64,000 nt of DNA from the NCBI GenBank assembly GCA_043815505.1, contig JBDRIV010000004.1, positions 113,671 through 177,670 of the forward strand, read 5' to 3'. The notes beneath the pieces were generated by a model. It searched no databases. It had not been told where the DNA came from and saw only the letters and a list, made by a program, of their open reading frames with translations. The position numbers and the translations under genes were made by a program. Of the stretch, positions 20,762-42,151 are shown in pieces; position 1 is the first letter of the stretch, and each line of letters opens with the position of its first letter. This DNA comes from a bacterium. Its GTDB lineage: Bacteria > Patescibacteriota > JABMPQ01 > JBDRIV01.

Positions 20762-20983
20762 TTTTAAATGATAATGATGGAGATTATTTCCCCTCCTGAA
20801 GCATAAGAAACCTGTTATAATTTTATTATAGCATATTTTGGACAAAAAAATCCCACTTAAGTTTCCAGTTACTATTGTTGTCATATTAAAAGAAAAAGAC
20901 CCGCGCTAGTTTTTAGAAAACTAACGCGGGCCGAAACGACGAATCCAAGGACTAAGACCAAAGTTCAGATGAGAACTGAGAGC

Positions 20984-21658
20984 TTAAGTCCAAAGAACTC
21001 TAGTTACTTTCGAGGACGGACGCAGGATTTTGCTGGCGCTCCCGTCGTCATGGTCGACCCAGGAGCAGCCCCAGTCCCAGGAACCATCGCCAAACCGACA
21101 GAGGTAAAGAACGTTGCGACCGCCGTCGGGGTTGCGGAGAATGGCACCCCAGAACGACAGGAACTTGATGCCCTTCGTGTCATACAGCCACTTGAGGGTC
21201 TTATGACCCTTCTCCTGCCACAGCGCCATGAAGTCTTGCTCATCGAGCTGGACATCTTCGGGAACTGCCTTGATGCGCTGAAGACGTTCCTTTCCGTTGA
21301 TGTAGGATTCACCTTCGAGATAGTCCTTATTGACAATCCTTCCAGCATCCAGATTGCCACTTTCGCGCTTTCCCACTCGCTCGATGATGCTCCAGCCTTT
21401 GCCCAGGAACTGTTCGGGGTTGAAGAGCTGGCGCTCGAGCAGATGAGGCTCGGTGGCACGCAGGTGAGCTTCCACGCGAGTACGCAGGTCGGCGAGGGTG
21501 TTTTCGGCGATTTCTGCTCCCTGTGCTTCGATCACCTGCTGGCTCGCCTCTCTTGGCAGATCGCTTTTCCTCCCCTTTGCCACGATGACATCGGCGAGTT
21601 TTGTCAGCTGTCCACCAGTGATAGTTTCTGCGGATGGGGACACGGTGTCTTTACCCAT
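20984..21658 (-). CDS. hypothetical protein in a high-GC island (about 224 aa)
   Basis: About 58-60% GC against about 33% genome; strong SD (AAGGAGG, 8-nt spacer) before ATG at 21658; no recognisable domain. Confidence 0.6.
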   Translation of the reverse strand: MGKDTVSPSAETITGGQLTKLADVIVAKGRKSDLPREASQQVIEAQGAEIAENTLADLRTRVEAHLRATEPHLLERQLFNPEQFLGKGWSIIERVGKRESGNLDAGRIVNKDYLEGESYINGKERLQRIKAVPEDVQLDEQDFMALWQEKGHKTLKWLYDTKGIKFLSFWGAILRNPDGGRNVLYLCRFGDGSWDWGCSWVDHDDGSASKILRPSSKVTRVLWT

Positions 21659-21785
21659 GGCGACATCCTCCTTATGTTGTATAGTACACGTCCTAGAACG
21701 CACAGAGCCTATCTCTGCACATTACTAAGACTGTGTATTATATATTATTATATCTTTTTTTCAACCATTTTCAGGAAAATATCCC

Positions 21786-26452: not shown

Positions 26453-26536
26453 ATAGCTCAAATAAAAATAAAGAAAGTTCTCTAACCCCCGCTTTCCGTA
26501 TTCTGGAAAAACAACTTAAAAAAGGGAGGACGGAAA

Positions 26537-26860
26537 GTGACAAAAAGAGACGTTTTGGTGGTGATGGCAATGTTACTCTGCATGACCGCGGGAAACATTG
26601 CAGGATTATTCCTCGCAAATGAGAACCCAATCCAGCAGATCTGGGAAGGTCCCGACGGGAACTTCAAGCTCCTGTTGGTTCTGTTCCCCTTCATCGTCAT
26701 CACCTTCTGCGTTCTCTGCATCCGCGAGGTGCGGAGAACCAGAAACAAACAGTGGGTGACACTGTATACCGTTTTGGCTATCGCCGGCATGGCAGCGGCC
26801 ATCGGAGTTGGGATTTGGAGTAGTAAGTGCTTCATCGCACTTATGGCTCCATCCTGCTAA
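26537..26860 (+). CDS. small membrane protein (107 aa)
   Basis: GTG start preceded by a GGGAGGA SD; three hydrophobic helices; about 50% GC. Confidence 0.5.
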   Translation: MTKRDVLVVMAMLLCMTAGNIAGLFLANENPIQQIWEGPDGNFKLLLVLFPFIVITFCVLCIREVRRTRNKQWVTLYTVLAIAGMAAAIGVGIWSSKCFIALMAPSC

Positions 26861-26869
26861 CCCCCTCAA

Positions 26870-26914
26870 CCCGCTCGTAGCAACCTTAATTGGAAGCTGC
26901 AGCGGGTTTTTTTT
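26870..26914 (+). terminator. intrinsic terminator
   Basis: CCCGCT...AGCGGG hairpin followed by T8. Confidence 0.5.
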
Positions 26915-26990
26915 GACAAAAATAGTATTTTTCGCTTTACTGCAAATATAAACAAGTGATCTTTTTACAAACTACATAAGGAGAATATTG

Positions 26991-37912: not shown

Positions 37913-38308
37913 GGGGATGCACGGCTTCGATAGTTTTGTTCCCTAAGAATTTGCAAACCGAGCTGTTATCTCGTAAATCTAACACCTGAACACGTGCAAA
38001 CACTGTTCAAAGAATGAAAGACAAAGTTGTTAGCTTTGCTCGCAGCCTTACGCCTTCATTCGCTCCTGTAGTTGCTTAATTAAGTAACTACCATCGCACT
38101 CACCTGCCTGAGGGGGAGGTTCGCGGTGTCATTTATCAGGCTTAGATTCTAAATGCTAATCATCCATTTATAATCGACATCTCTTGATGATTATGATTTA
38201 TTCGCTTTTGTCTATTTTTATGAATAAATCGAGAACTCCAAATAGACTATGTTTGTAGAAGGTTTTTAGATACGATGCTAGACGTGGGTTCGATTCCCAC
38301 CATCTCCA
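37913..38308 (+). ncRNA. ssrA: tmRNA (ssrA)
   Basis: 5' GGGGAUGCACGGCUUCGAUAG tRNA-like start; 3' T-arm GUGGGUUCGAUUCCCAC plus acceptor strand CAUCUCC complementary to the 5' GGGGAUG; candidate tag ORF ending ...PVVA-UAA; located just after smpB. Confidence 0.75.
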
Positions 38309-38310
38309 TA

Positions 38311-38340
38311 AAAGAATCCCTTAAGAAAGGGATTTTTTTA
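38311..38340 (+). terminator. intrinsic terminator after ssrA
   Basis: AAAGAATCCC-TTAAG-AAAGGGATTTTTTT hairpin plus T-run. Confidence 0.55.
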
Positions 38341-38795: not shown

Positions 38796-38893
38796 CCCAG
38801 CCCCAGTTTTATAGAACTCGTGGTTTTGAAAATTATTAATGCTAATGAATTTCTGAAATTCAAGTACTTGAATTTAGCAAAACTGGAGCTGGG
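38796..38893. repeat. long-loop member of the CCCAGCYCCAGTTTT/AAAACTGGRGCTGGG hairpin family
   Basis: 15-bp arms with one mismatch and a loop of about 68 nt; related copies at 55346-55440, 48298-48328 and 10731-10769. Confidence 0.5.
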
Positions 38894-38921
38894 TTGACAG
38901 ATTTTACAGTTTAAGTATAAT
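38894..38921 (+). promoter_or_regulatory. consensus sigma70-type promoter TTGACA-N16-TATAAT
   Basis: Exact hexamers at 38894-38899 and 38916-38921. Confidence 0.45.
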
Positions 38922-38929
38922 TTCTAATG

Positions 38930-39450
38930 CCATCAATCGGCACTTGATCATTTGATAATATGGGGATACGGGGGCGTAGACGAGAGAGTTTGTTTGCATG
39001 TAACTTAGTGGAAATTCGACGAACAGCACCATTGGCGCCCGCACATCGGTTAACGCGGTTTCGCCAGACTTGGTGCTACGTGGTTTATCGCCATCGACGC
39101 AAGACGCGGATTAACTATCCGCGCATCCGCCGGACAGCCCAGCGAGCCTTGCTCGCTGACGTTATCAACATTTTCACGCAGGTGTAGATCTTATTGGAAG
39201 ACCTTCGTCCTCGCAAAATAAAAACGCGACTCTATCGAATGTCTGCTATCAGCACCATAAACACCATGCAATCCAGTATGGCTTTATGGATCGTTGATCC
39301 TTGACTGCATCTAACCTGCGTCTTCGTGCTCTCTCTGATGCGCCTCCGTCCCCTACCCATACCCAACCAGAGGAGAATTTCTACCCCCTTCCCCTCTGCC
39401 CACCGGGGCCACAGCAAATCTTCATCGAGATGCTGTGGTCCCATTTTTTT
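38930..39450 (+). ncRNA. candidate structured ncRNA (about 520 nt)
   Basis: Promoter-to-terminator unit with no credible ORF, GC-rich with many local hairpins; terminator GGGCCACAGCA...UGCUGUGGUCCC plus U7 at about 39405-39450. Confidence 0.3.
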
Positions 39451-39499
39451 ATTAAATATTTGACAAAATATTTCTTGATATTATACTAATAAAGCTCTT

Positions 39500-39830
39500 T
39501 AGATATAAATATGTGGTGTGGTGCGGGGTGGCTGATAAGCTGATACGGTTGAGTGCTGTGTAAAAATCGTAATGGATATCCTTATTGGGGTCACGGCTAG
39601 ATTCCCATGATGTCCGAGGAACAGGAGTAAACCTGTACACACGTGCTGTGTCGCAGCATCGCGCAAAGTCAGTTAGTTCTGCATGCGCAGGCCCGCCAAG
39701 ATCAGTACCGAAAGGGAAAAATCGTTGGCCAATAATTCTGGGCACCATCTCGCCGAAATATCGCTTTTTCATCCCCCCGCACCCACCCTTTTTCAAGGCA
39801 GATTTGGACCAAGTCCTTTCTGCCTTTTCT
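39500..39830 (+). ncRNA. candidate structured ncRNA (about 330 nt)
   Basis: TTGACA-N16-TATACT promoter at 39461-39488; 5' GGTGCGGGG pairs with 3' CCCCGCACC; terminator AAGGCAGA...TCTGCCTT plus U-run at about 39787-39830. Confidence 0.25.
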
Positions 39831-39840
39831 TTTTCCTTGA

Positions 39841-39937
39841 CCCAGCAGCACAAGTATCTACACAAATATTAAGTATTTAAATTATTTATACTATTCTATT
39901 ATATCTGAAATAATAAAATGGAATTTGTACTACCGGG
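39841..39937. promoter_or_regulatory. GTAC-core cassette upstream of infC
   Basis: Degenerate distal CCCAGCAGCACAAGTA; proximal AATTTGTACTACCGGG (39922-39937), 57 nt before the infC TTG start. Confidence 0.4.
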
Positions 39938-40963: not shown

Positions 40964-41317
40964 ATGCCGAGAGTAAAACGCGGAGTACAAGCTTCCAAAA
41001 GAAGAAAAAATGTTTTAAAAAAAGCCAAGGGCTATAGATTAGAACGTCATAAAAAATATCGAGCTGCTAAACAAGCTCGTATTAAAGCCGAATCTTATGC
41101 TACGCGCGATCGCAAAGTTCGTAAACGAGCAGTACGCCAATTGTGGATTGTTCGTCTAAACGCTGCTTGTAGAAAACACGACTTAAAATATTCGGAATTT
41201 ATGTCCCTGCTGAAAAAGAATAAAATTGAATTGGATAGAAAAATATTAGCTGACATTGCTATTAAAGAACCAAAAACATTTAAGGCCATTGTTGATCAGG
41301 TCAAACCGAAGAAATAA
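40964..41317 (+). CDS. rplT: 50S ribosomal protein L20
   Basis: MPRVKRGVQASKRRK L20 N-terminus. Confidence 0.9.
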   Translation: MPRVKRGVQASKRRKNVLKKAKGYRLERHKKYRAAKQARIKAESYATRDRKVRKRAVRQLWIVRLNAACRKHDLKYSEFMSLLKKNKIELDRKILADIAIKEPKTFKAIVDQVKPKK

Positions 41318-41327
41318 TAATTTGAGT

Positions 41328-41358
41328 TAAAAAAATAAGGGCTGCCCGAATGGGTAGC
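41328..41358. terminator. hairpin terminator after rplT
   Basis: AAGGGCTGCCC-GAAT-GGGTAGCCCTT. Confidence 0.5.
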
Positions 41359-41395
41359 CCTTTCTAGTTTGTTGTGTTCGTGTCGTCACCTGTTG

Positions 41396-42049
41396 TTAGG
41401 CGACGGCGGTTTCTTCGACGGTGGGTTCGGCCGGCTTGTCTTCCGACTTGGGGGGAAGCCACGCTTCTTCGACGATCGGCGGACGCATGTCCTCCGGCAT
41501 GTCGAACTCGTTGGTGCCGGGACGCGGGTCGTAGGCGAAGTCGACCCACAAGTAGTTGTTGAACCACTGGAACCAGGCCGATGTCTTGACGCCGATTTTC
41601 ATTCGCACCTGGTAGTCGAAGTGAGTCGGAAACAGCTCCCGCATCTCACCGAAATCAATGGCACGCTGGTAGACCTGTTGTTGCCCCCGCTTGTCGATGT
41701 AAACCAGTCGCACCTGCGACTGGACGATCCTCGAGACGCGCTCGAAGTCGGCGGCCGGTGCCCAGGCGATGGCCTGGTACTTGGCCCGATGTCCTGGGGG
41801 AGCCTCGACGATCCGCATAGGGATCACCTTCTCCAGTTCGGGGCGTGCGAAGAGCCGTTTCTTCTTCAAATCGAAGAAAAAGCCATTGCCGATGGGCTCG
41901 ATGGCTCGACCCGCCAAACGATGGACGTAGCATCCTTCGCGTCGTCCGTTGATGACGACTGTAGTGAAGAAAAACTCACTGTCGCCGATCTTGGCAACAG
42001 TACCGACCGTATTGATCGGCTTGGACTGACTCTGATATTGTCCTCTCAT
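41396..42049 (-). CDS. hypothetical protein in a high-GC island (about 217 aa)
   Basis: About 60% GC; AAGGAGG SD 7 nt before ATG at 42049; acidic Pro-rich C-terminal tail; no recognised domain. Confidence 0.6.
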   Translation of the reverse strand: MRGQYQSQSKPINTVGTVAKIGDSEFFFTTVVINGRREGCYVHRLAGRAIEPIGNGFFFDLKKKRLFARPELEKVIPMRIVEAPPGHRAKYQAIAWAPAADFERVSRIVQSQVRLVYIDKRGQQQVYQRAIDFGEMRELFPTHFDYQVRMKIGVKTSAWFQWFNNYLWVDFAYDPRPGTNEFDMPEDMRPPIVEEAWLPPKSEDKPAEPTVEETAVA

Positions 42050-42151
42050 GGCTTTTCCTCCTTGCCTTAGAGAGATTATATTATGGCGCAAAATTTTACA
42101 TGCGCCACCGAACACAAATTGAAACGAACATCATAACAACAAAAACATTGC

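Follow-up and report, generated by a model that had tools for sequence, protein, structure and literature searches.

What is a solitary GC-rich gene doing in the AT-rich genome of a bacterium of Patescibacteria type, and does its foreign look tell when it got there? The window, as the whole 64-kb stretch of DNA that was analysed is called here, is 35.6% GC overall, against 54.6% for the region 20900-21725 and 56.0% for the gene alone, and the peak for 200-nt windows within this island is 59-61%; only one other stretch of the 64 kb, 41251-42100, has comparable GC. A sequence-only reading of the same DNA had given 58-60% in 33%, figures that are slightly high for an island that is real. As the contrast is found at synonymous sites, the GC excess is not an amino-acid effect: GC1/2/3 of the island gene are 0.61/0.42/0.65, and the GC3 comparison with neighbours which that reading had proposed gives 0.65 versus 0.22-0.31 in the cyclase, tgt, methyltransferase and 592-aa genes (n=4). 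The gene is compositionally foreign to its window. Its product is identical to an NCBI MAG protein, ABIE68_04530, there labelled 'hypothetical protein'. The parts of the island are as follows.

21737..21764, minus strand: promoter-like TTGAAA-16-TATAAT with 11/12 consensus matches (a consensus match only, such matches being no more numerous in the region than in shuffles), within AT-rich flanking DNA ahead of the island gene
21659..21730, minus strand: 5' UTR, its 5' end inferred from the promoter-like site, with the Shine-Dalgarno (SD) AAGGAGG at 21673->21667 and the spacer ATGTCGCC
20984..21658, minus strand: CDS of a 224-aa protein, by homology the variable protein of a diversity-generating retroelement (DGR), UVR2 class
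20936..21000, minus strand: tandem array following the variable region (VR), ~7 degenerate N3-CTT(A/T/G)G units with a period of ~7.5 nt, GTTCTTTGG ACTTAAG CTCTCAG TTCTCATCTG AACTTTGG TCTTAG TCCTTGG
20888..20932, minus strand: intrinsic terminator of the island gene, a 16-pair stem with a 3-nt loop (20898-20932), then TTTTTCTTTT

The 224-aa minus-strand ORF and the C-terminal peptide quoted for it in the sequence-only reading were both found, and homology backs the 20984-21658 frame; the overlapping ORFs, there taken for frame shadows, are just that. Also borne out is the claim of a consensus SD in a setting where native genes lack one. AAGGAGG stands 8 nt ahead of the island-gene ATG, an SD of 4-mer core or better precedes just 8 of the 45 ORFs in the window (the other 37 are without any), and the 7-mer AAGGAGG is present ahead of two genes only, that of the island and one at 41396-42049 in a second GC island. 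The hairpin had been given to the cyclase gene; its T-run is on the minus strand, and on that strand it follows the island gene and precedes the cyclase gene, so that it terminates the island gene instead. With promoter-like site, SD and terminator around the gene, the island is a complete, self-contained transcription unit: promoter-like site, 5' UTR with strong SD, CDS, repeat array and terminator.

To what does the protein belong? Neither Pfam nor NCBIfam has a significant match to it, its best PHROGs match (E = 0.042) is to a family of unknown function, PDB gave no match by sequence or by profile, and no relative was found among viral contigs (IMG/VR). The lack of any Rfam match over the island speaks against a large structured RNA there. 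Among 5.8 billion proteins, a word-indexed search yielded just 14 relatives, and an exhaustive profile search 1,726 representative clusters, 904 of them with E <= 1e-10, which have a ~150-residue C-terminal core in common and variable N-termini. None of 114 family members rose above noise against Pfam; the family is large and without a name in the protein-family libraries searched. A name for the class exists all the same. When the family alignment (A4, the window protein included) was compared by hhalign with the published UVR2 reference, the probability was 100% (E = 6.7e-42 over 178 columns), and BLASTP of the window protein against the reference gave E = 2e-11. Common to those references and the family are the motifs PF.P..FIG.GW, GE..I.GEEKL.RLK, IRLDA, F.GTILR.P.G.R.VL.L and W.W...WL, and the tail PSAVLAS. 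Motifs and hhalign probability together identify the island gene as a DGR variable protein of the CPR-specific 'UVR2' class, in a protein for which the sequence-only reading had 'no motif I can place'. The class was named by Wu et al. 2018 (PMC5758913) and its reference sequences are those of Roux et al. 2021 (PMC8144416, supplementary file 12), who described a cell-encoded DGR clade confined to Patescibacteria ('clade 2' of the reverse transcriptases, RTs) whose targets are without recognisable domains.

The island gene is a solitary member of this known class and not a new system. It is like the class in that the family is homologous to it over the whole core, in that no transmembrane or other domain can be recognised in the island protein, which has also been reported of CPR targets, and in its Patescibacteria-type host genome. 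It differs in that no template repeat (TR), Avd or RT accompanies the window copy in the 64 kb and in that its conserved tail is frameshifted, and published UVR2 entries were gathered because they adjoin an RT. RT-based DGR surveys are, as Roux et al. state (PMC8144416), blind to remote targets; solitary copies such as this one escape surveys that start from an RT, so the target repertoires of CPR may be underestimated. What was a 'hypothetical protein on a GC island' is now an identified element, a hypervariable DGR protein of a kind typical of ultra-small bacteria that live as symbionts, with ligand binding as its predicted role.

The hosts of the family are Patescibacteria/CPR MAGs (Kerfeldbacteria, Saccharibacteria, Yanofskybacteria, Paceibacterota). 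That all named hosts save two are Patescibacteria MAGs, and that none is viral, is in keeping with clade 2 of Roux et al., which is cell-encoded. The two exceptions, for a gene otherwise confined to Patescibacteria, are MAGs labelled 'uncultured Gammaproteobacteria' (loci L008 and L009); over 12.6 kb L008 has 100% identity with L002, a metagenome contig on which the genes are typically CPR-like, and mis-binning or mislabelling is the likely source of both labels.

The relatives show what a complete system looks like. In a DGR, cDNA is made from RNA of the TR, bases being placed at random opposite adenines, and this cDNA overwrites the VR. At seven loci of relatives (L004, L005, L007, L014, L027, L029, L030) a second short profile match, to positions ~172-217 only, lies 250-550 nt 3' of the gene, and DNA alignment to the VRs identifies these short downstream matches as TRs. 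Conserved 3' non-coding DNA had raised the idea of an integron cassette with attC or of a MITE-like unit, an idea rejected as the partial downstream copy in relatives is the TR; at the island itself there are no flanking direct or terminal inverted repeats beyond chance. The cleanest case is L027: its 129-bp alignment of VR with TR contains 13 mismatches, 13/13 of them at TR adenines. In L014 the mismatches at TR adenines are 12/15 and in L030 16/22, and in L004 and L029 the non-adenine mismatches all lie beyond the ...GCAA in which both copies of the repeat end. The TRs read TGG-AAC-TGG-AAC-TAC-AAC-TGG, the classic AAC design. Where relatives are 57-67% identical, the cassette order is gene, ~130-bp TR, Avd-like gene on the opposite strand, and RT. 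Against Pfam, the L027 genes match RVT_1 (E = 5e-22) and bAvd (E = 2e-7), and tblastn with its RT and Avd found partners, 53-68% identical, at seven further distinct loci: both genes in L007, L009 and L014, and Avd at a contig end in L004/L018, L017 and L029.

Is such a system at work today? One Saccharibacteria locus is available from two independent samples (L029 2384-2515, L012 2785-2916), and the two differ at 14 of 2,707 positions, 13 of the 14 falling in the 132-bp VR and 13/13 of those at TR adenines (P ~1e-16). The DGR system of the family is active in nature, and the pair is direct evidence of ongoing diversification.

Not all loci are so complete. In L030 (3791-4971) and L005 (5989-7144) target and TR are present, with no RT or Avd within several kb and with FtsH next in L030; their VR/TR pairs have more non-adenine mismatches, which suggests intermediate stages of cassette decay, and behind the 'TR' of L005 there is a CTTNG array too, as though a VR end had been duplicated. 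For L002, L013, L016 and L024 the stretch fetched has no TR match and no RT or Avd. Cassette-linked loci have a start-box region in which a -10-like TATAAT is followed by GGTAGTAGGTGAATAC...CCGAATCCAGTATCCAT (L004 ~6802, L001 ~6813, L014 ~3548, L027 ~4570 and others), likely the start of the TR-bearing RNA; L001 and L002 retain the start box, with no TR detected in the stretch available. Just 3' of the TRs there is a conserved hairpin, TTCATTTCTCTCCC-loop-GGGAGAGTTTTG (CTCTCCC-loop-GGGAGAG), e.g., at L004 7160-7200.

How does the copy in the window compare? Two features of its 3' end are needed here.

21007..21142, minus strand: VR, residues ~173 to end, ILRNPDGGRNVLYLCRFGDGSWDWGCSWVDHDDGSAS..., which aligns to the TRs of seven relatives
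21030..21031, minus strand: 2 nt more than in the TR/VR register of relatives, an insertion that frameshifts the conserved tail

Set against the TRs of the seven relatives, its cognate TR not being in the window, the VR is changed at 47-55% of sites that are TR adenines and at 19-31% of sites elsewhere, and where relatives' TRs have AAC-TGG-AAC-TAC-AAC it has GAC-TGG-GGC-TGC-TCC. Preferential change at TR-adenine sites, and NNC codons where relatives' TRs have AAC, are the imprint of past adenine mutagenesis that the window VR bears. Alongside this imprint are differences of another kind. In the ancestral frame the gene would end ...NPASVLESN, with its stop TAG at 21001-21003, matching the family tail PSAVLAS from which the 2-nt insertion departs; a Trp otherwise invariant in the family is replaced by Gly; and the VR ends in IMH-like CTCGAAAGT as against the family consensus CTCGCAAGT, a C->A change, the one difference between ...GTCCTCGAAAGT and the consensus ...GTTCTCGCAAGT. 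After that end come the array and the hairpin with its 16-bp stem, both candidate cis elements. The insertion may be genuine damage to the gene, or it may have come from misassembly of a heterogeneous VR.

A retroelement was sought throughout the 64 kb. By blastn (word size 7) the island matched itself only, i.e., there is no TR-like repeat; six-frame hmmsearch gave no second family match; with the L027 queries there was no tblastn match to RT or Avd at E <= 1; and neither a TR-side hairpin nor a DGR-RNA start box was found. For a remnant beside the gene, the best that can be offered is GGTAGTAGGTGAATAC with 6/16 mismatches, and 41% of random segments are as good. With no remnant of a deleted TR module beside the gene, loss of the module in place is conjectural.

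The reading that we prefer, with a probability of about 0.6, is that the window copy is a stranded UVR2 target that is no longer diversified. Frameshift and non-adenine changes in the VR, differences of a sort absent in L027, argue that it is no longer overwritten. While the system operated, the retroelement would have converted TR RNA into cDNA with random bases opposite adenines, and that cDNA would have overwritten the last ~45 codons, the VR, randomising ~11 AAY-templated codons. These codons are predicted to sit on a C-terminal beta-sheet domain, probably a divergent C-type-lectin-like ligand-binding surface, and eleven of them would allow roughly 10^13 variants. The copy would then have been left behind at loss of the retroelement module, or have been acquired alone.

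Some of the evidence pulls the other way. Promoter-like site, SD, array and terminator are intact, which is unlike advanced decay; the DGR search spanned 64 kb of a 255-kb contig, and a DGR elsewhere could act in trans; a VR that varies across the population could have misled the assembly into the frameshift and odd bases, in which case the copy might be intact and active. The foremost alternative is an active remote target whose VR is rewritten in trans by a DGR elsewhere in the genome, the frameshift being an assembly artefact. Non-adjacent, remote DGR targets are documented, e.g., in Treponema and Legionella lineages (Wu et al. 2018, PMC5758913), and resemble the window copy in being VR-bearing genes without an adjoining retroelement. 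Within the family itself several members, the L030, L005, L002, L013, L016 and L024 loci described above, also have no adjoining RT, and some cassettes carry two targets, i.e., two family genes in tandem (L017 106-1500, L025 728-2106, L028 3-1209). The recipient-side elements of the window copy, i.e., IMH-like end, CTTNG array and terminator hairpin, are intact, and many family copies are close to contig ends, as expected of population-variable DNA. Remote targets are defined, however, by a matching TR elsewhere in the same genome, and the window VR has lesions that are not at adenines. The Trp to Gly replacement, the C->A in the IMH-like end and the 2-nt indel are all at positions invariant in the family; repeated homing should erase them, as the 0/13 non-adenine mismatches of L027, the cleanest complete cassette, illustrate, and no DGR part lies within 64 kb. 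An active remote target is possible, and we hold it to be unlikely rather than far-fetched.

Could the copy instead be a paralog outside any DGR, never diversified and with a C-terminus that merely resembles a VR? With 1,726 clusters in the family and many loci having no retroelement nearby, there is room for such genes. But the nearest relatives of the window protein, at 67% identity (L004/L018, L017), are cassette-linked; opposite AAC in the TRs of relatives it has the codons GAC, GGC, TGC, TCC, CAT, GAC and AGC, all for amino acids reachable from AAC; and it retains the VR-specific array. A paralog of that kind is quite improbable.

That leaves the question of the foreign look, which the sequence-only reading had ascribed to recent horizontal acquisition, perhaps of defence or toxin cargo. 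Here the relatives permit a check. Across 21 loci gene GC is 0.528 ± 0.043, with host GC ranging from 0.32 to 0.60 (slope 0.23, r = 0.42), and for L010, L023 and L024, whose hosts are GC-rich, the gene has the lower GC of the two. Within complete cassettes GC3 is 0.63-0.84 for the target versus 0.38-0.57 for RT and Avd, and third-position adenine drops toward the VR, from 0.19 to 0.13 to 0.08 across thirds of the gene. At 11 of 25 family loci, in unrelated hosts, the nucleotides of the initiation region AAGGAGGATGnCGCC-ATG, SD and spacer together, are conserved. High GC, GC3-rich adenine-poor codons and a strong SD are intrinsic to the family and not marks of recent transfer. Composition and SD being family-wide traits, the island's foreign look does not date its acquisition, and a sharp GC island that has a strong SD cannot, in these genomes, be taken as evidence of recent transfer, which matters for genome-island scans.

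Horizontal movement at some time is another matter. Family loci are in mutually unrelated neighbourhoods across different Patescibacteria, which makes horizontal mobility of the family plausible, as judged from the loci compared. For the tgt-cyclase junction in the window, where no empty site could be compared, the nearest tgt homolog is 60% identical and three neighbourhoods compared have no synteny in common with it, and the exact Tgt sequence of the window had no match in an exact-sequence contig look-up. Of the earlier claim there stand the foreign composition and the plausible mobility; composition, SD and single-gene size, all family-wide, offer no dating. As for a single-gene toxin or defence cargo lately received from a GC-rich donor, its compositional contrast is strong, it has its own SD and terminator, and relatives are found in different neighbourhoods; yet the gene is identified as a DGR variable protein, PADLOC had 0 families matching it at E <= 10, which leaves the defence or toxin idea unsupported, gene GC keeps to a value set by the family and not by the host, and the identified hosts are Patescibacteria, not GC-rich donors, so that this origin is scarcely credible. 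Equally hard to credit is an assembly chimera or contaminant, abrupt as the GC change is for a MAG, since a GC-rich gene in AT-rich flanks recurs in independent Patescibacteria assemblies (e.g., L012/L029, L013), the island is inside a 255-kb contig, and its promoter-like site and its terminator make a clean junction with either flank.

What of the array? In ~25 of 30 loci 4-8 N3-CTT(A/T/G)G units come right after the stop codon, even in members only ~30% identical to the window protein, and the terminator hairpin comes after them. Unit density is 30/kb versus 4.6/kb for background, the commonest spacings are 7-8 nt and 15 nt, and the array is directional, with 88 forward versus 12 reverse-complement occurrences. 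Matches number 26 after VRs and 6 after TRs. As an imperfect hairpin compared with shuffles the array has z <= -2.2 in 6 of 12 loci, the window being at -2.9 and L016 at +2.0. DGR targets need cis elements 3' of the VR, namely an IMH and an inverted repeat (PMC5758913, PMC3240598). By analogy, the CTTNG array may be the version of this post-VR cis element in the CPR UVR2 DGR clade: where Bordetella and Legionella DGRs have an IMH-proximal GC hairpin or cruciform, the array could replace it. In the literature searched no description of a post-VR CTTNG array was found, and the VR-specific array of ~7.5-nt period is possibly undescribed. A bolder proposal, which we doubt, would have the array as a homing signal that marks the recipient, target composition as an adaptation to adenine mutagenesis or to translation of the transcript, and solitary array-bearing copies as still being rewritten in trans. 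Whatever its fate, array and target-specific codon bias are testable leads on how recipient DNA is recognised in this uncultivated DGR clade.

On the fold of the protein, prototype DGR targets with solved structures are Mtd of a Bordetella phage (1yu0) and TvpA of Treponema denticola (2y3c). An intact relative of the window protein, P0003, was modelled with pLDDT 94 and pTM 0.81, and in the model an N-terminal helical hairpin is followed by an alpha/beta core, with the VR on its last five strands. The corresponding feature of the window is:

21452..21616, minus strand: N-terminal two-helix hairpin, residues ~15-69, from structure models, the most variable part among family members

The family core begins at about profile position 67. 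Foldseek returned no match, and a divergent minimal CLec-like fold is no more than plausible.

Elsewhere in the window there are further departures from its prevailing composition. A smaller GC-rich patch (53%) at 26501-26950 contains a 107-aa hydrophobic ORF at 26537-26860 on the plus strand, for which Pfam gave only weak 7TM-like matches. Two other features are as follows.

37913-38311: tmRNA gene, Rfam 131.9 bits, ARAGORN tag peptide ANTVQRMKDKVVSFARSLTPSFAPVVA*
41396-42049, minus strand: second-island ORF of 217 aa, MRGQYQSQSKPINTVG..., with AAGGAGG-N7-ATG and its own hairpin terminator at 41339-41364

Just 3' of the tmRNA gene, ~1 kb at 38851-39850 is at ~50% GC, with no convincing ORF, no tRNA and a best Rfam match of E = 0.0073, to a plant miRNA family and far below the gathering score; this is possibly an unclassified structured RNA or a decayed gene. 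The second GC island, 41340-42070, peaks at 60% GC between rplT and a subtilase-like gene and has the same anatomy as the first. It is not a paralog of the first. Its protein has no Pfam match and, among 5.8 billion proteins, no homolog but itself (ABIE68_04625), a true orphan and arguably stranger than the gene with which we began.
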